This document shows positions 48,894 to 62,439 of a stretch of DNA of 64,000 nt, one piece after another. The position numbers and the translations under genes were made by a program. The stretch comes from an uncultured Gemmatimonadota bacterium (lineage in GTDB: Bacteria; JAAXHH01): assembly GCA_951812955.1 (NCBI GenBank), contig OX638340.1:2592001-2656000 (forward strand), given 5' to 3'. The notes beneath the pieces were generated by a model that saw only the letters and a program-made list of their open reading frames with translations, did no database searches and had not been told where the DNA came from. Positions within the stretch are counted from its first letter, which is position 1. Each line of letters opens with the position of its first letter.

Positions 48894-49115
48894 TCAGTTT
48901 GAATCCGGCAGGGTCTTCCCTCTGTAGATGGCCAACCATTTGGCGTGAATAGCCTCCCAGTATTCGATGTCCCTGTCGATCTCGTCATCGACTGTTGTTC
49001 CCGTCCAGGGCGTTTCTCTGAGCGGCCTCAGCTTGTGCCATTCAATAAGAAACATCTGGTGTCTGGCATTCATCTTTGACGCCCAGTTAATGCGTCGTGT
49101 ATCTTGCACAGACAT
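48894..49115 (-). CDS. Hypothetical small protein (island-borne)
   Basis: 73-aa ORF at the island's left edge with no recognisable motif. Confidence 0.3.
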   Translation of the reverse strand: MSVQDTRRINWASKMNARHQMFLIEWHKLRPLRETPWTGTTVDDEIDRDIEYWEAIHAKWLAIYRGKTLPDSN

Positions 49116-49319
49116 AACCTTCTCCTTTTCGTGGGAGATCAGTGTTCGGCGGGCGCAAACGCCGTAGATGTACGAATGCCCTTACCCTGTTGCCGAAGGA
49201 CCTCGTTTCAAACTTCTGAGTACAAGAAAACCCTGTCGGCCTTACTGGTCAATCGGGTTTTTGTTTCATTGCATCTCTTAAGTTGAGTCACCTTAGTCTG
49301 ACGGATCTGCCATCGCCAC

Positions 49320-49529
49320 CTAAAATCGTGTTAGAGTGTCTCCAATTCCTCTAGCAATTTCTCTTGCCTCATCATCGTCAAATTCAATCCTGAAATCTTC
49401 AAGGCCTCTATTCGTTTTCTCGATGAGCTTGTCGCGTAGATCTTTTTCATGGAAATACCCTTTTAACAGTTGAGTTAAAAGGTGTTCGATGAACAGGAAT
49501 CTTTTGTAGAATGCCCTTACATCAGTCAA
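49320..49529 (-). CDS. Hypothetical small protein (island-borne)
   Basis: 69-aa ORF with a charged C-terminal half. Lies 49 bp downstream of the 119-aa ORF on the same strand. Confidence 0.3.
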   Translation of the reverse strand: MTDVRAFYKRFLFIEHLLTQLLKGYFHEKDLRDKLIEKTNRGLEDFRIEFDDDEAREIARGIGDTLTRF

Positions 49530-49578
49530 TGGGGTGAATCAGGTTGAAACAATTTCATCTTTTTTACTCCTTCTACGT

Positions 49579-49938
49579 TCACGATCCCTCTCGGCGCAGG
49601 GTTTCGTAATCCCTGGCCCTGTCGCCTATCTCTAACTCGGCCAGCGTGTCGTCGATTCCCGCCTGGTAGGCCTCTCCTACCTGCGAATTGAGCGACTTGA
49701 CCTCCGCTTCCAACTCATCGACTCTGTTTTGTAGTTTCTTTGACGGATCAGGTGTGTACTCTTCCCCAAACAGACGGCTGATAACCTCTTCGAAAGGACT
49801 GGTTGCCGGTTGAGTGACTGCAGGCGGAACATATCCTAAAGCAGCTCGTAATGCGCCCCCGCCTTGGATACCACCGCTGATTCGCTTTAATTTTCTTCTT
49901 GAATCATCAGCTGGTTGATTTTGTTTATTCAAAGGCAT
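49579..49938 (-). CDS. Hypothetical protein, coiled-coil (island-borne)
   Basis: 119-aa ORF with a predicted coiled-coil in the C-terminal half ('VDELEAEVKSLNSQVGEAYQ'). Confidence 0.35.
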   Translation of the reverse strand: MPLNKQNQPADDSRRKLKRISGGIQGGGALRAALGYVPPAVTQPATSPFEEVISRLFGEEYTPDPSKKLQNRVDELEAEVKSLNSQVGEAYQAGIDDTLAELEIGDRARDYETLRREGS

Positions 49939-50120
49939 GGCCTTTCTCCTTTCTAGGTGATGCCATTAACAGTTCGGCCGTTGCCACCGCCGGATGAAAT
50001 ACAAAGAGACCCATACAGATCTCCCACTCTGAGGTCTTGCTGAAAGCCTTCTTTCAAGTTAGCCCGGTCGACTTATGCGGTCATCCGGGTTTCCTGTATT
50101 GCCTGTCCTACCGATCAGTT

Positions 50121-50357
50121 CTAGGCGAAGATGATTTCTCTCACTACTCTCTCCGCGATAGCGTACGACAGACGCGATTCAACGTAGATAAAGAACCAAC
50201 CCTCATTGAAAACGATACGATCTACTTTCCGTTCCTCCCCTTCTTCAGCATGGATATCTCCCACGCTGACACTACGCCGGGCGGTAAGGAGTCCTATTCG
50301 AGATTGATCTGCCGACGGGTCTAATTCCAACTTCAAAGACGCGATGTTTCCTAGCAT
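50121..50357 (-). CDS. Hypothetical small protein (uncertain strand; overlaps the + ORF at 50037..50324)
   Basis: 78-aa ORF in an AT-rich region. It competes with an overlapping ORF on the plus strand and neither has motifs. Confidence 0.2.
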   Translation of the reverse strand: MLGNIASLKLELDPSADQSRIGLLTARRSVSVGDIHAEEGEERKVDRIVFNEGWFFIYVESRLSYAIAERVVREIIFA

Positions 50358-50386
50358 ACCATCCTCCGAAAAGCATGAGTTGACCG

Positions 50387-50408
50387 GCCCCGCCGCGCGG
50401 CGGGGCCG
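50387..50408. promoter_or_regulatory. Perfect 22-bp GC palindrome (strong hairpin) inside AT-rich island non-coding stretch
   Basis: 'ggccccgccgcgcggcggggcc' is identical to its own reverse complement. Confidence 0.5.
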
Positions 50409-51069
50409 TGATATACGGACCGTCTATCTGACTCGGATCCGTCGTGTACGAATCGTGGTCCTTACCGTGCAGGTACGGGTGACCTTTACACGGACCGGGA
50501 CGCGTCTCGTACGTACAGGACTCCTTCGAATCCTGGGCATAGTACGACCCTCCATTTTAAACAGGGCCACTTTTTTGTTGATTTCCACACGAGGGAGGGT
50601 TATAATACGGAGCGACCCTCAGAAAGCGCGCCCTGTTGGTCAATCACCTGTGGCCCGGAGTTCCCTATACTTCGGGCCACTTCTTTATAACGGTGTAATA
50701 TACCTTACGCGGCTTCGTTCGTCAACCTGTTTTGCGCATCATATTCTATCGTTTTCTTCCTGCTCCGCCGATCACCGCAACATGTTGTGTGCTACACATT
50801 TATTGACCTAATAACGGGTGTTTAGTACGTCGATAACATGCTCTTGCCGGAATCGGCTTTCTGGAGAACCTGGAGCTTGAACTCACGGAAGAACTGACGG
50901 CGTTTCAGGGACATGGGGTGTCTCCTCGTTCAGAAGGAAGCTTAACTCTGTGTCCCGTTCAACGGTGCAGTACATCATTCCTACCTAACCCCGCTTTGTT
51001 GTGACGTATACTACCGTGTACAAGCTCCGCAAAATTTGTTATGTACGTCGTGTGTAGGAGATTTCAACT

Positions 51070-51483
51070 ATGGAACAAATCGTTCCCCTATTTCTGAAAT
51101 ACGAATGGTGGCAAATAGTTGCGATTTTCCTCGCCTTGAGTGCGCCGGTCGCTGTTTACTGTATTTTTAAAAACTTCAACCTAACAGAATGGCGCAAAGC
51201 TCGAGACGAAAGGCACAGGGAACGAATGCAGTCCTGCTGTCCCCACGCTGAACGTGTATTGCAAGAAAACGGTGTAGTTTATTTCAAACCACTTATAAAC
51301 TCGTCCGTAAAAACTCGCGAAGGAGTCTGTTCCGAATGTGGAAAATCCTTTCTCCACGGCAGAACTGCCGTACTTGACACTGCAGTCCATTACGAAATGC
51401 ATATCGAAACATATCAAGAACGCGCAAAGGAATACAACACACTCGCCAAAAAATACGGTAAACGACTCCTGAACGTTAAGTAA
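51070..51483 (+). CDS. Hypothetical membrane-anchored protein with Cys4 zinc-ribbon-like motif
   Basis: N-terminal transmembrane helix. Cys pairs 'CCPH' and 'CSEC' are spaced as a possible zinc ribbon. Lies immediately upstream of hsdM. Confidence 0.45.
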   Translation: MEQIVPLFLKYEWWQIVAIFLALSAPVAVYCIFKNFNLTEWRKARDERHRERMQSCCPHAERVLQENGVVYFKPLINSSVKTREGVCSECGKSFLHGRTAVLDTAVHYEMHIETYQERAKEYNTLAKKYGKRLLNVK

Positions 51484-51740
51484 ACCTGGCCTCTGTTTTG
51501 TCCCACATTCGACAATGTCTACCCTTTTCACTTTACATTCCAAAAAAGCGCCTGACCGATAACAGTAAAGTGTGTATACTTTCCGCAGACATTCCAATCG
51601 ACTTACTTACATTAACCTTATAGATTTATATATAGTTATGTGACGTAATTCGGAACAGTTAAGCAGGTATATACAAACTTGCTTTTTAAACTGCCCGAAG
51701 ATTCTACAAGTCGTTAGACGGAATTCAAAGTAAAGGTATC

Positions 51741-54422
51741 ATGAGTCAAGACAAAATCACATTGGCCCAACTAGAGTCCTTCCTATTTAAAGCAGCCGAC
51801 ATCCTGCGCGGGAAGATGGATGCATCCGAATTTAAGGAGTTCATTTTCGGCATGCTGTTCCTGAAACGGCTCTCCGATGAGTTTGATCAAACGCGCGAAC
51901 AGTTACGCGAAAGGGTCTACGCCCACCTAGAACCCGATACAAAGGCAGGAGTGCTTGAGGATAAAACGTCCTATGGAGAGACATTTTACGTACCCGTTCG
52001 TGCACGTTGGCATGAGGAGTGGAAGGATGAGAATGGCGACTTAGTTCCAGCACTCAAGGATCTTAAGAGCGACATTGGCAATATGTTGAATAAAGCTATT
52101 GCTGCGGTCGAGGATGAGAACGACTCACTAGCAGGGGTGCTGAAGAACAACATTGACTTTAATGCTGTTAAGGGTAAGACGAAGATATCTGATCAAAGGT
52201 GGAAGGACTTACTCGATCATTTCAACCAACCTCAGTTTGTCCTGGTTAACGACAATTTTGAGTTCCCCGATCTACTCGGTGCAGCTTATGAATACCTGAT
52301 CAAGTATTTCGCGGACAGCGCAGGTAAAAAGGGAGGCGAGTTTTACACCCCCGCGGAGGTAGTGCGTCTGTTGGTTCAGCTAACCAAACCAACTGCCGGG
52401 AATGAAATCTATGACCCAGCTGTTGGTTCTGGTGGCTTTCTGATTCAGGCACACCAGTATGTCGAAGAGCAGGGTGAGGATCCCAACAATCTGGCCCTAT
52501 ATGGTCAGGATTCCAACGGCACCACCTGGTCGATCTGTAACATGAACATGATTCTTCACAACATCACGCGTTTCACGATTGAGAACGACGACACTTTGGA
52601 AAATCCTCTGATATTGCAGAATGGTCAGGTTCGAAAGTTCGACCGCGTGCTGGCCAATCCCCCATTTTCGCAGAACTACACCCGCGCCAACGTGAAATTT
52701 ACCAATCGTTTCCGAGAGTGGTGCCCAGAGACAGGCAAGAAAGCTGATCTAATGTTCGTCCAGCACATGTTGGCAAGTCTCAAAGGCGACGGCCACATGG
52801 CTACCATTATGCCTCACGGTGTCCTCTTTCGCGGAGGCAAGGAGAAGCTGATTCGGGAACTGTTGATAGACGACGATGTTATCGAGGCAATCATCAGTTT
52901 GCCTCCAGGGTTATTTTACGGGACTGGCATACCGGCTTGCGTGCTCGTTTGCGATAAGAACAAGCCCGACGAGTTGCGCGACAAAGTCTTATTCATCAAC
53001 GCAGACCGCGAGTATGCCGAAGGAAAGAATCAAAACAAGCTGCGGCCGGAGGATGTGGAGAAAATCGACTTTGTGTTCTCCAACAAACTCGAGATCCCCC
53101 AATATAGCCGGCTCGTACATAAATCAGAGATCGCCGACAAGCACGACTACAATCTGAACATTCGACGCTATGTAGATAATACCCCTAAGCCAGAGCCGGA
53201 GGACGTGCAAGCCCATCTAATCGGCGGCATCCCTGAATCTGAAGTTGCAGCGAAAGAAGATAGTTTCTCTAAGTTTGGCTTTCAGGCCAAAACGCTATTC
53301 TGCCCTGATCGACCAGGCTACCTCGCATTCAGAGAGTCGATTACAGGCAGATCGGTCATCAAAGAGATCATTGAAGGGGATCCATCGATCGTGCAGACGT
53401 TGAAAATACATCGCAATGCACTCAAGCAATGGTGGAACGTAGCCCGTGATGAATTCGCCGAGCTTGAGCATGGCAATCACAGCGGTCGAAAGATGCCCAA
53501 AGTGCGTCATGAGCTTATGAAGACACTCAAGGGTAAGCTCGTTCCGCTATGTGTACTCGACGAGTTCAAGAGTGCGGGCGTTTTCGTCAACTGGTGGCAG
53601 CAAATTCGCTATGACCTGAAGACCATTGTTTCAACAGGATGGCATCATACACTCATCCCAAAAGAATATCTGACCGCCGCGTTTTTCCAGAGTGATGCAG
53701 ATGCTATTGAGGAACTGGAGACCCGTATAGGTGAACTACAGGCAGAATTTGCTGAAGCCGTGGAAACTGCTCAAGAGGTCGCCGCGTATGAGCCGGAAGA
53801 AGATAAAACGGTAACGGCATCGGCCATTAAGACAGCTCTAACGGACCTCATTAATGACCTAAAGGATAGCACTGGCGAGTCGGCCAAGCGAGAGCTTAAC
53901 ATACTCAAGGCACAGGATGTTGCTATAAAGGACATAGAAAAGAAGATCAGGAGCAGCAAAATTTCATTAAAGAATAAGACCATGGAATTGGAAGACAAAC
54001 TCCAACTCAAGCGACTCGGAGGAGATGGATTCAAGAGCGAAAATCAGAGACTCATAGAGGAAGACGAAAGCCAGATTGCATTACTGAATCCAAGCAACAA
54101 AACTGAAAATACAAAGATCAATGCGTTAAATAAAGATATCGCTGTACTTGAGGAACGTATCGCCAAGACCCACGCGGTACTGGAGGCACTCGGTGGTTCA
54201 CTAACCGATGACGAAGCCAAGCATCTCATCCTCAAGAAGCTCTACGACATCGTGAGCACTGAATTCGAACGCTACCTCAATGCAGAGATACGTCACCTAA
54301 TTTCAGGTGTCGAAAAACTGTGGAGTAAATACGCCAGCAGCAGCCAGAAGATAGAAAGCGACCGAGAAATCACGCTCGGCCAGCTCAATGCATTTCTAAG
54401 TAGATTGGGATATATGGGATGA
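51741..54422 (+). CDS. hsdM: Type I restriction-modification system methyltransferase subunit (N6-adenine), with long coiled-coil C-terminal extension
   Basis: HsdM N-terminal domain ('[10 protein letters not shown]'-like '[17 protein letters not shown]'). AdoMet motif I '[12 protein letters not shown]'. Catalytic motif IV 'NPPFS'. At 893 aa it is longer than the ~500-800 aa typical of HsdM. Confidence 0.9.
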
Positions 54423-55618
54423 GTAAGAAATTTGAAACGCTATCGAAAATCGGTCTTCTTCGAATGGGAGAAACGATTATCGCAAAGGACTGTTCTGGAG
54501 ATGGTTTGCCAATCTATTCCGCAAATAAAGGGAACAAGCCATGGGCGCATTCCGACCACTTTAGATGCAAAAATGAAAGAGGCTGTATTGTCATAGGGGC
54601 AAGAGGAACTATTGGCTATCCACGTCTTCCGAAAGATGAACTGTTTGGCGCAACTCAAACCACAATCGTATTTTCTCCTGACAAAGATCATTTTATCCCG
54701 GAATTCCTGCACTACAGCCTGCAACAAGTTGATTTTGAGAGTCTCGGAGCACAGCAGGCAATTCCTATGCTCACTGTTTCCAATTTAGAGAACCTAACGA
54801 TTCGTTCGTTCAAAAAACCTGAACAATCTAAGATCGCCAAGATTCTTACAACGGTCGATCAGGCGATTGAACAGACCGAAGCGTTGATAGCAAAACAGCA
54901 ACGCACCAAGACCGGTCTGATGCAAGACCTGCTCACACGCGGTATCGACGAAGATGGAAACCTTCGCTCCGAAGACACCCATGAATTTAAAGATTCACCG
55001 TTTGGGCGTATTCCGGTGGAGTGGGTAGTGAAAGAACTAAGTGATTTTTGCGACGTAACATCCAGTAAACGCATATACTTACATGATTACAATACAGAAG
55101 GTATTCCGTTCTATCGTTCAAAAGAAATCATCGAACTGGTAAGGGAAGGAAAAACTCTTGGTGGATTATATATCACGAAAAGTAAGTATCTTGCAATAAA
55201 GCGCATCTTTGGAACTCCTAATAAGGGCGACGTACTCATTAGCTCAGTAGGAACTCTTGGAATTTGCTATTTGGTCAGGGACAACGATCGATTCTATTTT
55301 AAAGATGGAAATCTCATCTGGCTCCGTCGATTTCAAAAACATATGAATCGGATATTTTTAATAGAATTACTACCAAGGATGATCAATACCCAATTTGATG
55401 ATCTTGTGATTGGGACAAGTCAAAAGGCATTCACGATTGAGAAGCTTAAGCGTCTCAAGCTTTATTTCCCATCGACCGAGGAGCAGAATAGACTAGCGGT
55501 TTCTGTTCAACAGTTCCAAGCTAAAATCGATTGCGAGATACAAAGTCTGCAAAAACTCCGATTCCTCAAGACCGCTTTAATGCATGACCTCCTCACTGGC
55601 AAGGTTTCTGTCAGGTAG
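54419..55618 (+). CDS. hsdS: Type I restriction-modification specificity subunit
   Basis: Two target-recognition domains separated by conserved central and C-terminal helical repeats. The central conserved motif reads '[28 protein letters not shown]' and the C-terminal one '[20 protein letters not shown]'. Its ATG overlaps the hsdM stop in an ATGA arrangement. Confidence 0.85.
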
Positions 55619-55644
55619 TTAATCACAGAAGCGGAGAGCAGTAT

Positions 55645-58600
55645 ATGAGTAAAAACGAGTCTCCAGCGCACATTAAACTCGACGAAAGGAATCACGTTGA
55701 GAAGCCAATTCTTGATCAGCTTGAGGGTATGGGCTGGGAGATTATCGACCTCGACAGTCAGCAACTCCCTGTAGATACTCACCGCGAGACTTTATTGGAA
55801 GTTGTCATGTTCCCAGTGTTGCGTGAGCAACTCAAGGTCATCAATCCCTGGATAGAGAACGATCAGGTTGAAGAGGTCGTCAAGCAACTTTCTGCGAGTT
55901 TCCCAGGCACGGGGCTGACTGAGAGTAACAAGCATGTGCTTCATCTGCTGCTCGGAAACACAATCGTCAGTGAAAATCGGCAATCCGGTGAGAATAGCCC
56001 GACTGTGCGCTATATCGACTTCAAGAACCTGGACAACAACCGATTCATTGCAGTTTGCCAATTCAAAGTCCGCATCTTGGGCACGGAGAAACACATCATC
56101 CCGGATATCGTGTTATTCGTAAATGGTCTACCGGTGGTTGTAGTCGAGTGCAAGTCCCCTAAAGTAAAGGATGCCATCCCAGAGGCCATCGACCAGATAC
56201 TACGCTACAGCGAGCAGCGGGGTGACAAAGGCGAGGGAAGTGCTCCACTCTTTTATTACAACCAGTTTGTAGTCGCCACATGTCGCCAGGAGGCCAAGTT
56301 TGGGACGATAACCACGCATATTGAAAAACATTTTTTTCGTTGGGCTGATCCTTATCCAAAAACGCTCAATGATCTCGAGCATGGCTCTGGTACTCCAAAC
56401 GATCAGCAGCGCCTGGTCGCTGGGATGATGGCTAAAGATAACCTGCTCGATCTCATTCGCACCTTCACTCTGTTTTCAACCAACGATAAAGGTCAGACCA
56501 TTAAGATCGTCGGACGATATCAGCAGTACCGCGCGGTCAAAATCGCTGTTAAGCGTCTCATGGAAGGCGCGACCCCACGGGAACGCAGCGGCATCATCTG
56601 GCACACTCAGGGATCCGGTAAATCGCTGACCATGATGTTTATGGTGCGTGAGATGTACCAACAACCGAAACTGGCAAGCTGGAAAGTGGTATTCGTCACT
56701 GATCGGACACAACTCGAAAATCAGTTGAGCGAGACCAGCCAAAGCATTGGGTTCACAGTGAAGACGGCGAACAAGATCAGCGAGTTGAAGGAACTCCTGA
56801 GCACTGATACGTCGGATTTGGTCATGGGTATGATCCACAAATTTCAAGAAGACGATCTTGAAGAGACCTTCCCACAGCTAAACGACAGCCCCAATATACT
56901 GGTCATGACTGATGAAGCTCACCGTTCTCAATACAAGCTACTTGGTGCGAATCTTGACAGAGCTATACCCAATGCTGCAAAAATCGGCTATACAGGCACT
57001 CCGATTGATAAGACAGAGCAAGTCTTTGGCGACTACATCGACAAATATACCATGCGGCAGTCCATAGACGATGGTGTGACTTTGGAGATAGTCTATGAAG
57101 GTCGCACTCACAACGCGGAAGTCTCTGACCAGGAAGGTATGGATGAGGCGTTCACTGATGTGTTCAGCGATTACAACATTGAGGAAAGACTTGCAATCCT
57201 TGGCTACGGTACCCGAAGAGCCTATCTGGAAGCAGAAACAACGATTGAAGCCAAAGCCAAGGATATGATTAATCACTACCTGAAGCATGTATATCCGAAT
57301 GGCTACAAGGCACAGATTGTAGCCACTTCTCGGGAGGCTGCTGTCCGCTACAAGAAGCACGTAGACAATACCCTTGAAGCTTCAATTGCTGATCTGGAAA
57401 AATCAAATCCAAATGGTCTTGATTTGGATCTGTTAAAGTCTATTGAGACAGATGTAGTGATTTCTGGGGAAGGAAACGATTTAAGTCATCTAAAAACATA
57501 CTCAAACCCGACCAAGCACGAGAGTAGCATCAAAAGTTTCAAGATGGATTTCGGTGGTGAAGTTGACGGTCTTCATGGAAACATGGGAATACTTATTGTC
57601 AATAACATGCTTATCACGGGATTCGACGCCCCTGTAGAACAGGTTATGTATTTGGACAAAGTCATTTTTGGCCACAACTTGTTGCAGGCCATCGCAAGGG
57701 TAAATCGTGTTGCAGGTGAGGCCAAGGGTAAAGGCTTTGTAATCGATTATGTTGGGATTGGTCATAACCTAAAGAGGGCAATTGATCTTTATGATAAGAA
57801 AGAAAAGAACGAAATCATCGATACACTTGTTTTTCCTGAAGAAGCATTGCGTGAATTGGAGGATAGCCATGCCGAGATCTTAGCTTTTCGGGAAGCGAAC
57901 GGCTTAGAGGAATTGGCAGACTTGGATGCATATTACGATGTGTTTTATGATGAGGCACTACGTTTTGAATACATGCAGTCTTTCAAGAAGTTCACTAGGA
58001 ATCTGAATTCAGTGTTCCCAGCTAGGCAGGCTTTGGAATACATGGACGAATATAATGTATACGCTGAAATCAACACACTTGCTGGAAAGCATTTTAGAGA
58101 TGAACGATTAAGTATGAAGGGAATCCCACCGAAGCTCCTCGCAATCACAGACAAGTACTTGGTGTCAGAAGGTATACATCAGCAGGTCAAACCAGTCTCA
58201 ATTTTGGACGATTCATTCCAAGAATCTGTTAACAGCCATACACGTACAAAGACAAAAGCAGCTGAAATCGAGCATGCTATTCGACACCACCTAGATGTAG
58301 AATTGAATGACGATCCAGATTTGCAGGCATCCTTTGCAGAAGCGCTTGCTAAAATACTGCAAGAGTTCAAGGACAATTGGAGCAAGGTTTACGAGGAATT
58401 GGAGAAGTTACGACAGCGTATCATCAACGTTAGTAAAGAGCCCACATATGGGCTTAGTCGAAAAAAACAGATGCCATTCTTTCGATGTTACAAAAGGGAG
58501 ATGTTTGGCGAAAATGAGCTTAATGAAGATGAGATTTCACTTCTTGTCGACTTAACTAAGCAGGTATTTTCTGTGATAGAACTTGAGCTGAAGTTGATTG

Positions 58601-58773
58601 GTTTTTGGGAAAGCATTTCTGCACGCAACAAACTAAGGGCTGAAATTCAGAAAAAACTGCTTGGATCTACTTACGCGGCATTACCACACATAGTAGAGAA
58701 AAAAGACAGCATTATCAGCCGCACGATGGAGATCGCGGAGAAGAACAACGATATCATACTTTATGCGGAATAA
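55645..58773 (+). CDS. hsdR: Type I restriction enzyme endonuclease/helicase subunit
   Basis: HsdR N-terminal nuclease domain ('VVECK'). SF2 helicase motifs: Walker A 'HTQGSGKS' and DEAH-box 'MTDEAHRS'. 1042 aa. Confidence 0.9.
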   Translation: MSKNESPAHIKLDERNHVEKPILDQLEGMGWEIIDLDSQQLPVDTHRETLLEVVMFPVLREQLKVINPWIENDQVEEVVKQLSASFPGTGLTESNKHVLHLLLGNTIVSENRQSGENSPTVRYIDFKNLDNNRFIAVCQFKVRILGTEKHIIPDIVLFVNGLPVVVVECKSPKVKDAIPEAIDQILRYSEQRGDKGEGSAPLFYYNQFVVATCRQEAKFGTITTHIEKHFFRWADPYPKTLNDLEHGSGTPNDQQRLVAGMMAKDNLLDLIRTFTLFSTNDKGQTIKIVGRYQQYRAVKIAVKRLMEGATPRERSGIIWHTQGSGKSLTMMFMVREMYQQPKLASWKVVFVTDRTQLENQLSETSQSIGFTVKTANKISELKELLSTDTSDLVMGMIHKFQEDDLEETFPQLNDSPNILVMTDEAHRSQYKLLGANLDRAIPNAAKIGYTGTPIDKTEQVFGDYIDKYTMRQSIDDGVTLEIVYEGRTHNAEVSDQEGMDEAFTDVFSDYNIEERLAILGYGTRRAYLEAETTIEAKAKDMINHYLKHVYPNGYKAQIVATSREAAVRYKKHVDNTLEASIADLEKSNPNGLDLDLLKSIETDVVISGEGNDLSHLKTYSNPTKHESSIKSFKMDFGGEVDGLHGNMGILIVNNMLITGFDAPVEQVMYLDKVIFGHNLLQAIARVNRVAGEAKGKGFVIDYVGIGHNLKRAIDLYDKKEKNEIIDTLVFPEEALRELEDSHAEILAFREANGLEELADLDAYYDVFYDEALRFEYMQSFKKFTRNLNSVFPARQALEYMDEYNVYAEINTLAGKHFRDERLSMKGIPPKLLAITDKYLVSEGIHQQVKPVSILDDSFQESVNSHTRTKTKAAEIEHAIRHHLDVELNDDPDLQASFAEALAKILQEFKDNWSKVYEELEKLRQRIINVSKEPTYGLSRKKQMPFFRCYKREMFGENELNEDEISLLVDLTKQVFSVIELELKLIGFWESISARNKLRAEIQKKLLGSTYAALPHIVEKKDSIISRTMEIAEKNNDIILYAE

Positions 58774-58776
58774 CTG

Positions 58777-59460
58777 ATGAACGTGGACTATACAGTAAAG
58801 CGATCGCATAAGCGAAAGAAGCTGACAATTACAGTTGAGCGTGACCGGCAGGTTGTGATCTCCGCTCCCGAGTCAACTTCTGAGGAGGCAATTAGAAGAT
58901 ACATCGAATCGAAACGCCAGTGGATTTACGAGAAGTTGAATCACCTGCAGAAATACGAAACTCAACCTCATCCGCCTGGTAAGGAATTAGTAAATGGTGA
59001 ATCTACGCTTTATCTTGGCTCCGAGTATCAGATCCAGATTATCACTAGCAGTACGACTGAGATACGATTAGAGCAACGTTTTCTAGTTCCGAATTCTTTG
59101 GCGGGAGAAAGAAGGAAGGTATTTCAAAAATGGTATGTCGACCGGGCTAAAGAGAACATATTACCAAAAGTAAAATCGTTCGCCAGTATGCTCGGAGTGG
59201 AGTTTGCCAATGCGAAGATCATGGATAGTCGCTACCGTTGGGGCTCTTGTACAATCAAAGACAACATCAACTTAAACTGGCGTTTAATTAAAGCACCTAT
59301 GTTCGTAATCGACTATGTAGTAGTTCACGAACTCGCACATCTGATGGAGGCAAACCACACCTCTCGATTCTGGAATATCGTTAGGACGCACGCACCATTG
59401 ATGGAAAAGGCTCAAAGATGGCTTAAAGAAAATGGCCAGATACTCGAACAGGATATCTAG
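58777..59460 (+). CDS. DUF45/YgjP-like (WLM/M48-like) zinc metallopeptidase, often found with Type I RM loci
   Basis: HExxH motif 'VVHELAHLME'. Starts 3 nt after the hsdR stop. Confidence 0.75.
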   Translation: MNVDYTVKRSHKRKKLTITVERDRQVVISAPESTSEEAIRRYIESKRQWIYEKLNHLQKYETQPHPPGKELVNGESTLYLGSEYQIQIITSSTTEIRLEQRFLVPNSLAGERRKVFQKWYVDRAKENILPKVKSFASMLGVEFANAKIMDSRYRWGSCTIKDNINLNWRLIKAPMFVIDYVVVHELAHLMEANHTSRFWNIVRTHAPLMEKAQRWLKENGQILEQDI

Positions 59461-59525
59461 CGCGCAGTTCGAATAAACCAGTATCAGGTATTAACTGAAT
59501 CGTCGATTCATCCGCTTTTTTTAGA

Positions 59526-59921
59526 TTATCCGCATCCGCACACCAGCGCCTTACCCTCGGTGGCCTGCAGCCCCTCGGTTTCGTAGCCGTCCCGCATCCA
59601 CCAGTCCAGCCCGCCAATTAGTTCCTTTACGTTGAAACCCAACCTCGCCATGTTGAGCGCGCCCTTGGTCGACGCGTTGCAACCGATCCCATCGCAATAG
59701 GTTACGTACAGTGATTTTTTGTTCAGGTCGGCCGTGGAATCGGGATCCATGGTCCGGTGGGGAATGTTAACGGAGCCGGGGATATGCCGTTCGGTGTACG
59801 CTTCGGCGGACCGCGTGTCCACTACGACGATGTCATTGCCCAGGGTGATGGATTCCCACAGGTCGTAGGCATCGATCTCGTATTTCAGCTTACTCTCGTA
59901 GTGGGTAATCTGGTCTTTCAT
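59526..59921 (-). CDS. Rhodanese-like single-domain sulfurtransferase
   Basis: Active-site loop 'YCDGIGCNAS'. Start at 'MKDQ' (59921). The ORF as called runs to 59966. GC is intermediate (~55%). Confidence 0.7.
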   Translation of the reverse strand: MKDQITHYESKLKYEIDAYDLWESITLGNDIVVVDTRSAEAYTERHIPGSVNIPHRTMDPDSTADLNKKSLYVTYCDGIGCNASTKGALNMARLGFNVKELIGGLDWWMRDGYETEGLQATEGKALVCGCG

Positions 59922-60271
59922 TGTGCCTCTAACTGGTATGAGCCAAAGTGGGTGGTTCTGCGACACATCTATCTTAGGGAATACAAGAAGCTACCCAGCT
60001 CATTTCTAGTATAACAAATTAGCGTGCTGGATAGTGTATTCGTCTCAATTCTTCTTTAGGTTTATAACGCGGTTGGAATTTCTATACACGGCCATCAAGC
60101 CGAAAAATCCAGTTTATATTAGGAGTTGTGTCTGAAACTTCGGACCTATGGCGGGCATTACTCGCGAGGATTTGTAAATCTTTATATAAAACTAAACTCA
60201 AGTTACTCGCCCAATCTATCGATTAATGGTTTCATCTTAGCAGTTGATGTTTAATCTGAAATGAATGGATA

Positions 60272-61018
60272 TCAATGGACAAGAGCTTGAAACTCTTTCC
60301 CATTCATAGGCTTGTGTTTCGTCCAGCTTCCGCTCATTTCAACCAGGATTCGCTGCATCCATGAGTATGAATCAGAGGTGTAGATTTTCAGCACTCTAGC
60401 TTTGTATTCGGGATGTTCTTTCATAGCTTTAGTTAAATCATAAACCAAGTAACGAGGTGACCAACCAATCATGTGATAATCTAAAGTCTGGATTTGAACT
60501 GCCACCTTTGATACAGGATTGGTTAGTTCCAAGGTTACATACAACGGTTCATCTTCCTCTAATTTACTTAATCGGTTCTTTGCCGGTTTATTGATATGTC
60601 GAGTTCCGTGAAGAAAAAACCGGCACGTAAAGCTACCATCCGCTTCCTTGCGGATTTTCGGAAACACCTCATATGAATCAGTTACACGATTACCTCCATT
60701 AATGGATAGGATCTCAATTGGATCTGCTTCGTCACAGAGATCAAACCCCTTAAGGTAGTCCTCAAATTCTGGCCTCGATCGATTCAGAATTCGATTCTTA
60801 AATAACGGAAACAACTCCTTTGATGTATATTCATGGTCGAAACTAGGGAATTCAACCAGTGGAGCGAATCGTGCTTTTTCCATTGCCCGTTTTGCGCCGT
60901 AGATATAACGAAACTTAAAGAAAGGTTCGTTGATATCGGCATCAAGTCGACCTACGGGATACCATTCTCGGGTTGTTACCTGATCTTGCCAAGCAAGAAA
61001 AAGTGTTCTGAAGTTCAC
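60272..61018 (-). CDS. Hypothetical 248-aa protein, translationally coupled partner of the HipA-like kinase
   Basis: GTG start overlapping the kinase stop in a GTGA arrangement. No recognisable motif. AT-rich codon usage like the rest of the island. Confidence 0.5.
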   Translation of the reverse strand: MNFRTLFLAWQDQVTTREWYPVGRLDADINEPFFKFRYIYGAKRAMEKARFAPLVEFPSFDHEYTSKELFPLFKNRILNRSRPEFEDYLKGFDLCDEADPIEILSINGGNRVTDSYEVFPKIRKEADGSFTCRFFLHGTRHINKPAKNRLSKLEEDEPLYVTLELTNPVSKVAVQIQTLDYHMIGWSPRYLVYDLTKAMKEHPEYKARVLKIYTSDSYSWMQRILVEMSGSWTKHKPMNGKEFQALVH

Positions 61019-61905
61019 GAATCTATCTCCAATAGTTTTTGACGGTTATATAACATTAAATTCATTGCGAATTGTCGGGCGTGTATGCTCATCCAATCAT
61101 CTGGAATACGATTAACGATTTCCTCAAGGCTGCTTATGTCAAGTTGGTAGAGTCTTTGCAAAACGGAACTAAAAGACTCCGGTAGTTCATTGAATGTAGT
61201 GCGCACGACGCCAAGGGGGCTTAGCCCTCTAGTGTCTTCGCTAGACCTGTAAATCGGGCTTCGACCTTTTTCGGCATATTGTCCAACTCTATCCTCATCT
61301 AACAATCGAATACGCCTGTCATCATCGATTTCTCTTCCCAGAGACGATGCGTGGTCATATGACGGTGCCATAGTTTTCGACACCATAGAAAAATCCATCA
61401 AAACTCCCCAGTTTTCGTGATGTCGATCAGTGTTTCCAATAAACGCATCTAAGATTATGTATTCACAGAAAGTTTGTTTTGCACTATCGGCTTTTTCTTG
61501 TTCAAATACTGTCTCAAGAACGCTCCAGATATTAAAGATGGTATGGTCTGATTGCTTTTGTGTCTTTTCTGGCTCATATTCATTAAATATAAAACTCAGA
61601 AGTTGGTTACCATGAATCAGTTCATGGTAACGATCGGTAAATGACTTGGTAGCTGTTCCTTTGGTTTGCCTGAAAACGGCTAATTCGACGATTGCATGTG
61701 GGATATTGAGTAATTCTGCAACTTCAGATGCAACCTTTTCAGCCCAATGTTCGCCCCTACTCTCTCGATGGTATTTAAAAAGCCATAGTTCATCTTCAGA
61801 TTCGGATCGATTGAACCAGAATTTAGGTTTGCTTCCCATTTCTTCCTGAAGATACTGGTCTTCCTTAATTTCCTCGATCTGATAGTCATTCAACTTCCGC
61901 CCCAT
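61015..61905 (-). CDS. HipA-family (HipA_C-like) Ser/Thr kinase, short form lacking the HipA N-terminal subdomain
   Basis: 'GSKPKFWF' resembles the Gly-rich ATP-binding loop of HipA. The catalytic motif 'ILDAFIGNTDRHHENWG' matches the HipA/CtkA 'GNxDxHxxN' pattern, and 'APSYDHAS' matches HipA 'xPxYDxxS'. Confidence 0.6.
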   Translation of the reverse strand: MGRKLNDYQIEEIKEDQYLQEEMGSKPKFWFNRSESEDELWLFKYHRESRGEHWAEKVASEVAELLNIPHAIVELAVFRQTKGTATKSFTDRYHELIHGNQLLSFIFNEYEPEKTQKQSDHTIFNIWSVLETVFEQEKADSAKQTFCEYIILDAFIGNTDRHHENWGVLMDFSMVSKTMAPSYDHASSLGREIDDDRRIRLLDEDRVGQYAEKGRSPIYRSSEDTRGLSPLGVVRTTFNELPESFSSVLQRLYQLDISSLEEIVNRIPDDWMSIHARQFAMNLMLYNRQKLLEIDS

Positions 61906-62439
61906 TTTTCTCGGTCTATGTCATTGGGCCTTAACATCCTGTTTTGCAATATCCAATGCGATGTTTGTTTTTTACGGTCCATCCCCAGTCACTAATGCGT
62001 CCACTTATGGCCTTTGGACAGATAAATTGCATGTCCTCGGTTTCCTCGGCTCGGTAGGAATCCTGCCGACTTGGACCACACGTCATTTCACGTCTGAGTG
62101 GCGGTTTTCACGACATGGCCCTCCAGTATGTGTCATTTCCTTATTTAACGCTATTAAACCAAAAAGTACCAGATGAACTGCAGGTGCTCCTCCAACTTGT
62201 CTGAGCACGTTCAATAGATCTCGATCATAATTTCGACTAAGTCTACGACAGTCATCCGTATTTCGCAATCCTTTCTCAAGCCGTAGAGCGGTGAAGTTAC
62301 GATCAGTTTTGAAACTGTCGTCTGGGAAAATTGCTATATATGTAAAATGTCTTCGTAGACTAGGTTTAGCGAAAAACTAATTACATCACGACTAGACTTG
62401 TCTGTGGATTTGCCATCATAGTCTGGCAATTTTCACCAA

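Follow-up and report, generated by a model that had tools for sequence, protein, structure and literature searches.

A long-HsdM Type I restriction-modification operon with an hsdR-linked DUF45 gene in an uncultured Gemmatimonadota bacterium

The genome of an uncultured Gemmatimonadota bacterium (assembly GCA_951812955.1, contig OX638340.1) contains, within the 64,000-nucleotide (nt) stretch from position 2,592,001 to 2,656,000 analyzed here (the window), a Type I restriction-modification (R-M) operon in which hsdM, hsdS and hsdR are followed by a gene of the YgjP-like/DUF45 family. The locus raises two questions: what is contributed by the long C-terminal extension of its 893-amino-acid (aa) methyltransferase subunit HsdM, and why a gene encoding a zinc-peptidase fold follows hsdR, the gene for the restriction subunit. 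Structures of EcoKI and EcoR124I have established that canonical HsdM binds the coiled coil of the specificity subunit, HsdS, through short C-terminal helices. Here, we present evidence that the flagged operon is one more member of a known and common Type I family, that the HsdM extension is a conserved and detachable module, and that one clade of DUF45 genes is closely coupled to hsdR. Taken together, and with somewhat better than even confidence, we favor a long-HsdM Type I system in which the extension would serve the assembly of HsdM with HsdS and the DUF45 protein would act on HsdR.

Judged from its sequence, the operon is an intact Type I R-M system belonging to a large, routinely annotated and partly characterized family. 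The initial annotation had described a complete operon of four tightly packed genes, and both descriptions hold, the coordinates and junctions being exact to the base (Table 1). Read directly, the hsdM stop codon and the hsdS start codon share the ATGA at 54419-54422 (context GGG-ATGA-GT), the 26-nt spacer ahead of hsdR contains the Shine-Dalgarno sequence GGAGAG, and the 3-nt spacer between hsdR and the DUF45 gene reads TAA-ctg-ATG. No strong plus-strand terminator was found between 51741 and 59460, and the four-gene block is thus taken to be a single operon. All four open reading frames (ORFs) are free of frameshifts and internal stops, every catalytic motif is intact, and the system is apparently functional. 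HsdM matches HsdM_N (PF12161, 1.8e-29) and N6_Mtase (PF02384, 9.4e-104) in Pfam as well as the NCBIfam hsdM model TIGR00497 (257 bits against a cut-off of 242.75), and it retains the S-adenosylmethionine motif DPAVGSGGF225 and the catalytic motif NPPF306. HsdS contains two Methylase_S stretches (PF01420, 3.1e-26) and is covered over residues 50-398 by the PADLOC Specificity_I models. HsdR matches HSDR_N (PF04313, 2.4e-38), SWI2_SNF2 (PF18766, 5.2e-72) and the NCBIfam hsdR model TIGR00348 (3.9e-150, 501 bits against a cut-off of 284.55), with the nuclease residues D154...E168-x-K170 and the motor motifs GSGKS323 and DEAH423 in place. PADLOC recognizes all three R-M subunits. Scores against the mad2 and mad5 models of the MADS system fall below their cut-offs (MAD2, 63.6 bits versus 720; MAD5, 28.8 bits versus 400).

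The length of HsdM, which had been flagged as exceptional, is the norm of its family. Compared with textbook enzymes the protein is indeed unusual: the chains of canonical enzymes solved to date (EcoR124I, 7bst; EcoKI, 2y7c; and 7vru and 3lkd) align with its HsdM_N and catalytic domains over residues ~5-509 only (E values of 2e-85 to 3e-23) and end 16-52 residues past the aligned core, whereas the window protein continues for some 400 residues without a counterpart in any solved structure. Likewise, no Pfam family covers residues 492-893. A search with the full-length protein nevertheless returned at least 8000 relatives at E<1e-30, and the best 120 of these (75-100% identical), some of them named "type I restriction-modification system subunit M", are 857-912 aa long with the exception of a single 763-aa entry. 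Ordinary HsdM proteins of equal length, which the initial annotation had named as evidence against an extra-long HsdM, are thus effectively at hand. The PADLOC Type I methyltransferase model PDLC03031 spans 834 positions and covers residues 4-756 (E 5.4e-282), three more long PADLOC models (810-1001 positions) reach past residue 630, and Wu et al. 2020 (PMC7296061) had already aligned the Synechocystis proteins Slr6095 and Slr6096 with long methylases of other bacteria. Full-length relatives are also encoded on plasmids of Dolichospermum (68% identical), Synechococcus PCC 7502 (67%), Runella (47%), Oscillatoria, and Synechocystis (42%).

What lies beyond the core is more than a coiled coil. 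The ~250-aa coiled-coil tail of the initial annotation corresponds to only a part of the addition; that figure fits the stalk alone, whereas the whole addition comprises ~400 aa (~492-893) and includes, ahead of the stalk, a conserved non-coiled region of ~150 aa. Conservation within the extension peaks in two blocks of fixed length, residues 602-631, which are the most conserved, and residues 842-866 (ERYLNAE...W.KY). In alignments W564, W565, R589, W618, W861 and Y864 are invariant, and W619, R844, Y845, K863 and a C-terminal LGY are nearly so; the C-terminal base segment measures 47 aa in 81 of 83 sequences. By contrast, conservation is lower in the segment between the anchors at residues 619 and 844, which contains the stalk and whose length ranges from 213 to 285 aa across the family. 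The stalk evolves faster than the core, with a mean identity of 41% versus 67%. An AlphaFold2 model of the extension alone, built from an 83-sequence alignment (mean predicted local distance difference test score, pLDDT, 89; predicted template modeling score, pTM, 0.77), places a beta element and helices at residues ~497-640, followed by helices at 713-781 (69 residues), 787-817 and 823-888. We read the extension as a conserved base, composed of the N-terminal block and the C-terminal helices, that is predicted to bear an antiparallel coiled-coil stalk of variable length, which by the dimensions of the 69-residue helix would be an estimated 100 Å long. The packing of base and stalk in this description follows from the order of secondary-structure elements and the pattern of conservation rather than from coordinates; in the full-length model the methyltransferase core was poor (pLDDT 30-70), and the packing of the extension against the core was not read from it. 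Foldseek searches of the PDB revealed no solved structural relative of the extension (best E 0.035, TM-score <0.25), and a sequence profile of the extension matched only keratin, myosin and designed coiled coils there, all within the stalk.

The extension behaves as a module. An exhaustive search with the extension alone yielded 691 clusters at 50% identity, 368 of them at E<=1e-10, and among complete proteins the module was found either at residues ~480-900 of an HsdM of 820-960 aa or standing alone, with no other fusion partner. The Synechocystis plasmid pSYSX and Oscillatoria PCC 7112 share one split point in the M gene, which yields proteins of 512 and 513 aa followed by proteins of 373 and 355 aa, respectively; the split maps to about residues 515-527 of the window HsdM, with Slr6096 aligning from residue 527. 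Residues 36-401 of the window extension align end-to-end with residues 3-373 of Slr6096 (E 2e-23). In Oscillatoria the two genes meet in TAATG, with the one-base overlap that is typical of translationally coupled genes. A search with Slr6096 recovered 156 relatives, most of which are 354-380 aa long, lack a methylase domain and are 45-75% identical to Slr6096; their hosts include Nostoc, Tolypothrix, Microcoleus, Geminocystis, Richelia and others, finished genomes among them. Because the extension exists in cyanobacteria as a separate, translationally coupled gene, we consider it a detachable module. Since fused forms span many phyla and occur in other cyanobacteria as well, the simplest account of the split is a fission specific to one lineage, which Wu et al. 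likewise assumed. Standalone proteins of 435 and 451 aa that appeared to consist of the extension only were rejected as independent genes; they lie on contigs of long-read metagenome assemblies that carry frameshifts in hsdM and hsdR too.

The characterized member of the family is Ssp6803V, encoded on plasmid pSYSX of Synechocystis sp. PCC 6803, for which a bipartite N6-methyladenine (m6A) specificity, GGAN7TTGG, has been shown. Hagemann et al. 2018 (PMC6105098) found slr6095 to be required for GGm6AN7TTGG/CCAm6AN7TCC methylation in Synechocystis. Wu et al. (PMC7296061) assigned slr6095 and slr6096 as the N- and C-terminal portions of a long M, slr6097 as S and slr6102 as R, and reported that insertion mutants of slr6095, slr6096 and slr6097 each lose the bipartite methylation. 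The window system resembles Ssp6803V in its M (42% identical over residues 5-892, with the extension matching Slr6096), in the conserved central and C-terminal helices of HsdS, and in the order of hsdR followed by a DUF45 gene. It differs in that its M is a single chain and its operon compact, whereas Ssp6803V has an M divided between two genes at about residue 512 and carries Fic and HigB genes inserted between hsdS and hsdR. The two HsdS proteins are 30% identical overall and both target recognition domains (TRDs) are divergent, which suggests that the window system recognizes a target other than GGAN7TTGG; a prediction of HsdS specificity was abandoned, the TRDs being too divergent from those of the sole characterized relative. 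Loci with the order M-S-(inserts)-R-DUF45 include those of Runella, PCC 7502, pSYSX and Oscillatoria as well as two from metagenomes. The genes embedded between hsdS and hsdR in related operons include toxin-antitoxin, Fic, PIN, nucleotidyltransferase/DUF86 and unknown genes (fetched loci L002, 12073-16874; L004, 12832-15265; L007, 12938-14119), and in several genome loci (e.g. L014, L021 and L038) hsdR is separated from hsdS and hsdM by at least 6 kb. A further possible relative is KpnBI, whose hsdM is reported to be ~2.6 kb and to encode a similarly long M overlapping hsdS. In reviews KpnBI is the prototype that defines the Type IE family (CAAAN6RTCA). No DNA-level match to the window system was found in 5,426 E. 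coli genomes.

The fourth gene encodes a protein of the YgjP-like family (PF01863), matching the profile over its entire length (1-207 of 207) at 8.1e-58 and 196.3 bits against a cut-off of 26. Six orthologues share, without variation, H184, E185, H188, E191 and H194, which include the HELAH184-188 zinc site, and the RWGSC154-158 motif. Among solved sequences, the minigluzincins proabylysin (4jiu, E 0.0011) and projannalysin (4jix, E 0.009) come closest. Like these and like M48-type peptidases, the protein combines a minimal catalytic scaffold with an HExxH motif and a further ligand downstream; unlike them, it adds an N-terminal half of ~120 aa. NCBI homologues are named "SprT family zinc-dependent metalloprotease", a name that is not backed by profile scores: the SprT-like profile scores 16.7 bits against a cut-off of 25.6 and the WLM profile 16.9 bits against one of 26 (E 0.007), and the Wss1 structure 5jig is matched at E 0.32. 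No PADLOC defense model matches the protein. It is basic, with an isoelectric point (pI) of 9.6; this charge was dropped as a hint of DNA binding because DUF45 proteins not linked to R-M genes are equally basic and the property does not discriminate between them.

The linkage of the DUF45 gene to hsdR was assessed in a census in which a DUF45 alignment was scanned over one genome per species and 80 loci were kept. Thirty-eight loci encode a DUF45 protein at least 40% identical to that of the window, 35 of them with usable upstream sequence, and in 31 of these 35 an HsdR of the family ends -4 to +12 nt ahead of the DUF45 start, which bears out the earlier proposal that the gene is conserved directly downstream of hsdR. 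The remaining four comprise one locus with a 168-nt gap and three disrupted loci in long-read metagenome-assembled genomes. Among the hosts of the loci at or above 40% identity are Acidobacteriota, Desulfobacterota, Bacillota, Pseudomonadota, Verrucomicrobiota, Planctomycetota, Cyanobacteriota, Bacteroidota, Actinomycetota and one Altiarchaeales archaeon. Among the 42 loci with DUF45 proteins 30-39% identical, hsdR lies upstream in only 12; the others adjoin unrelated genes such as those for tyrosyl-tRNA synthetase (TyrRS), MreB, an EamA transporter, an HD-domain protein and IS200/IS605 transposases. Since linkage is tight at 40% identity and above and sparse below it, DUF45 is a general family of which one clade is dedicated to hsdR. 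The identity of DUF45 proteins tracks that of their HsdR partners (Spearman 0.94, n=41), which shows that the two are inherited as a unit. A long M is present in 26 of the 28 to 29 DUF45-anchored loci with a visible hsdM. Two Halanaerobium loci depart from this in having a short HsdM, with 1.2 kb (L054) and 54 nt (L057) between hsdR and the DUF45 gene, as does a Microcoleus locus (L058) in which the sole methyltransferase match is weak (30% identical) and lies downstream of the DUF45 gene. A literature search for work linking DUF45, YgjP or COG1451 with Type I R-M returned nothing relevant, in keeping with the statement in the initial annotation that the role of this gene is poorly characterized.

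How might these components work together? By homology, the M2S1/R2M2S1 logic of canonical Type I enzymes is expected to apply: two HsdM and one HsdS would form a methyltransferase that modifies adenines at N6 within a bipartite target dictated by the two TRDs, and addition of HsdR would give an ATP-driven translocating endonuclease that cuts unmodified DNA. We propose that the extension takes the place of the canonical short C-terminal helices and so serves the assembly of M with S, and perhaps of M with M or with R. A role in M-S assembly is probable and is the best supported one, because the extension replaces the HsdS-binding helices, has fixed-length conserved blocks at both ends and occurs only with HsdM, and because disruption of slr6096 abolishes methylation. 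The DUF45 protein, co-expressed with hsdR, would be a minimal gluzincin-type zinc peptidase whose substrate is the restriction enzyme, with HsdR as the most plausible target, and the operon would thereby contain its own equivalent of ClpXP-dependent restriction alleviation. In Type IA and IB systems, ClpXP degrades translocating HsdR (PMC12707154), and proteolysis of HsdR that protects unmodified host DNA is likewise the model proposed here for DUF45. The two differ in that the AAA+ serine protease ClpXP has a housekeeping role and is encoded outside the operon, whereas DUF45 is a small ATP-independent zinc-peptidase fold encoded within the operon. A zinc-protease fold tied to hsdRMS biology has a precedent in ArdC, which, unlike DUF45, is an anti-restriction protein of plasmids, and whose protease activity is dispensable (PMC7213743). 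Tight coupling to hsdR together with co-divergence argues for a function of DUF45 on or with HsdR, and control of HsdR is possibly that function.

Several observations weigh against this combined reading. The helices of the window HsdS are of normal length, so that binding to S alone does not explain a stalk of ~100 Å. Because the two Halanaerobium loci have a short HsdM, DUF45 linkage is not strictly tied to a long M, and because common descent explains the co-occurrence of long M and DUF45, that co-occurrence is no evidence of a functional link between stalk and peptidase. The DUF45 fold is not specific to R-M, given that unlinked members are equally basic and lie beside unrelated genes. E. 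coli YgjP has been assigned nucleotide pyrophosphatase rather than peptidase activity. Finally, polar effects of the slr6095 and slr6096 insertions are not excludable, and the loss of methylation in slr6096::Km may reflect polarity on hsdS (PMC7296061).

Three other explanations were considered. With a long, faster-evolving stalk unexplained by HsdS binding, there is room for a sensing or docking role, and the stalk could be a functional arm instead of an assembly element, serving as a sensor, decoy or docking platform. Its task might be to sense anti-restriction proteins or stalled complexes, or to bring in DUF45 or the embedded defense proteins, which would add a second layer of defense or regulation; we think this rather improbable. 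A little more plausible, though still unlikely, is that DUF45 is not a regulator of the enzyme at all and is instead a small-molecule or nucleotide hydrolase, a crosslink-type protease that clears stuck Type I complexes, or a hitch-hiker with a defense role of its own. Distant DUF45 genes beside housekeeping genes (TyrRS, MreB, the EamA transporter) do point to general functions of the fold. In favor one may further cite the weak SprT-like, WLM and Wss1 matches, the SprT naming at NCBI and the basic pI, along with the fact that Type I enzymes do not leave the DNA once they have cut it. Neither SprT nor WLM, however, reaches its Pfam cut-off, the protein lacks a match to any PADLOC defense model, and the -4 to +12 nt coupling and the correlation of 0.94 with HsdR favor a function tied to HsdR over a passenger gene.

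There is also a slight chance that the operon is a decaying or methylation-only remnant in which restriction is inactive and the long M a neutral legacy. Hagemann et al. (PMC6105098) suspected that restriction by pSYSX is inactive because M mutants segregate, and many metagenomic relatives of the operon are broken. Type I M and S mutants are, however, viable whatever the state of R (Wu et al., PMC7296061), the relatives are broken by frameshifts that stem from long-read assembly, purifying selection acts strongly across phyla, and in the window operon the four ORFs and every catalytic motif are intact. If control of HsdR by DUF45 is combined with docking or sensing by the stalk, one arrives at a self-regulating Type I variant in which the co-translated DUF45 peptidase would cleave HsdR or the stalk once the enzyme encounters unmodified self DNA or comes under attack by an anti-restriction protein. 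This is a speculative extension of the scheme that we hold to be improbable; if true, it would amount to ClpXP-independent restriction alleviation or to a switch built into the operon.

The operon lies inside a ~13-kb island of low GC content (~49000-62000; GC 0.41-0.49 versus ~0.62 elsewhere), which also holds a rhodanese gene and, ~800 nt downstream of the operon on the opposite strand, a gene pair corresponding to the PADLOC candidate defense system PDC-M03A/B (E 3e-87 and 4e-72); NCBIfam has no name for this pair of HipA_C-like kinase and HIRAN genes. As the R-M operon and PDC-M03 lie together, the region, at 45% GC in a chromosome of 62% GC, is a small defense island. A search of its borders turned up no tRNA, integrase or convincing flanking repeats. 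A sodium:solute symporter encoded in the flanks clusters at 90% identity or more with proteins from Gemmatimonadota metagenome-assembled genomes, in keeping with the assignment of the host. Ahead of hsdM, the two sigma-70-like matches in the AT-rich leader fit the consensus at 9 of 12 positions each, a level at which shuffled sequences gave more sites. The upstream ORFs 50344-50811 (+), 51070-51483 (+) and 49579-49938 (-) have no Pfam, NCBIfam or PADLOC match, and none of the island's other ORFs, these three included, has a relative in the fetched loci. ORF 50344-50811 may be spurious, because a strong terminator-like hairpin with a 12-bp stem (50650-50680) lies inside it. In related loci, a small HNH endonuclease gene stands directly ahead of hsdM on the Dolichospermum plasmid (L001, 8137-8433) and on Synechocystis pSYSX (L004, 8659-8982); no counterpart was found in the window. 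On the Oscillatoria plasmid a multiubiquitin/E2/ThiF(E1)/DUF6527 cluster, a defense-type module, is found immediately upstream of the split-M Type I system (L007, 5606-8229).

Table 1. Features of the Type I R-M operon and its surroundings (positions within the window).
Feature	Position	Strand	Description	Basis
Putative operon promoter region, AT-rich leader	51552-51742	+	two weak sigma-70-like matches, 51552-51580 and 51715-51742	consensus scan
hsdM	51741-54422	+	893 aa	ORF call
hsdM canonical core, aa 1-491	51741-53213	+	HsdM_N and N6-adenine methyltransferase domain	
Extension, N-terminal conserved base, aa 492-640	53214-53660	+	small beta element and helices	alignments, AlphaFold2
Extension, predicted antiparallel coiled-coil stalk, aa ~641-830	53661-54230	+	helices up to 69 residues, lower conservation	AlphaFold2
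Extension, C-terminal conserved helices, aa ~831-893	54231-54422	+	fixed length; candidate HsdS-binding element	
hsdS, specificity subunit	54419-55618	+	399 aa; two TRDs and two conserved helical regions	Pfam, PADLOC Specificity_I, S.Ssp6803V alignment
hsdR, restriction/translocase subunit	55645-58773	+	1042 aa; PD-(D/E)xK nuclease, SF2 motor, T1R domain 3, helical C-terminal domain	
YgjP-like/DUF45 zinc-metallopeptidase-fold gene	58777-59460	+	227 aa; 3 nt past hsdR	Pfam
Rhodanese gene	59526-59966	-		
HIRAN-domain protein and HipA_C-like kinase, overlapping gene pair	60272-61018 and 61015-61905	-	247 aa and 295 aa	PADLOC PDC-M03A/B

The operon itself is standard, and the value of its description here is mostly one of tidying up; the open questions belong to the family and not to this locus. 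One is what a conserved, detachable coiled-coil module of 400 residues adds to a Type I methyltransferase, given that EcoKI and EcoR124I methylate without one. The other is why hsdR, in many bacterial phyla and at least one archaeon, is coupled to a zinc-peptidase-fold gene; a protease dedicated to restriction alleviation, if true, would add a new principle to the control of Type I enzymes. For both questions a ready genetic system is offered by Synechocystis pSYSX, in which the module is already a separate gene.

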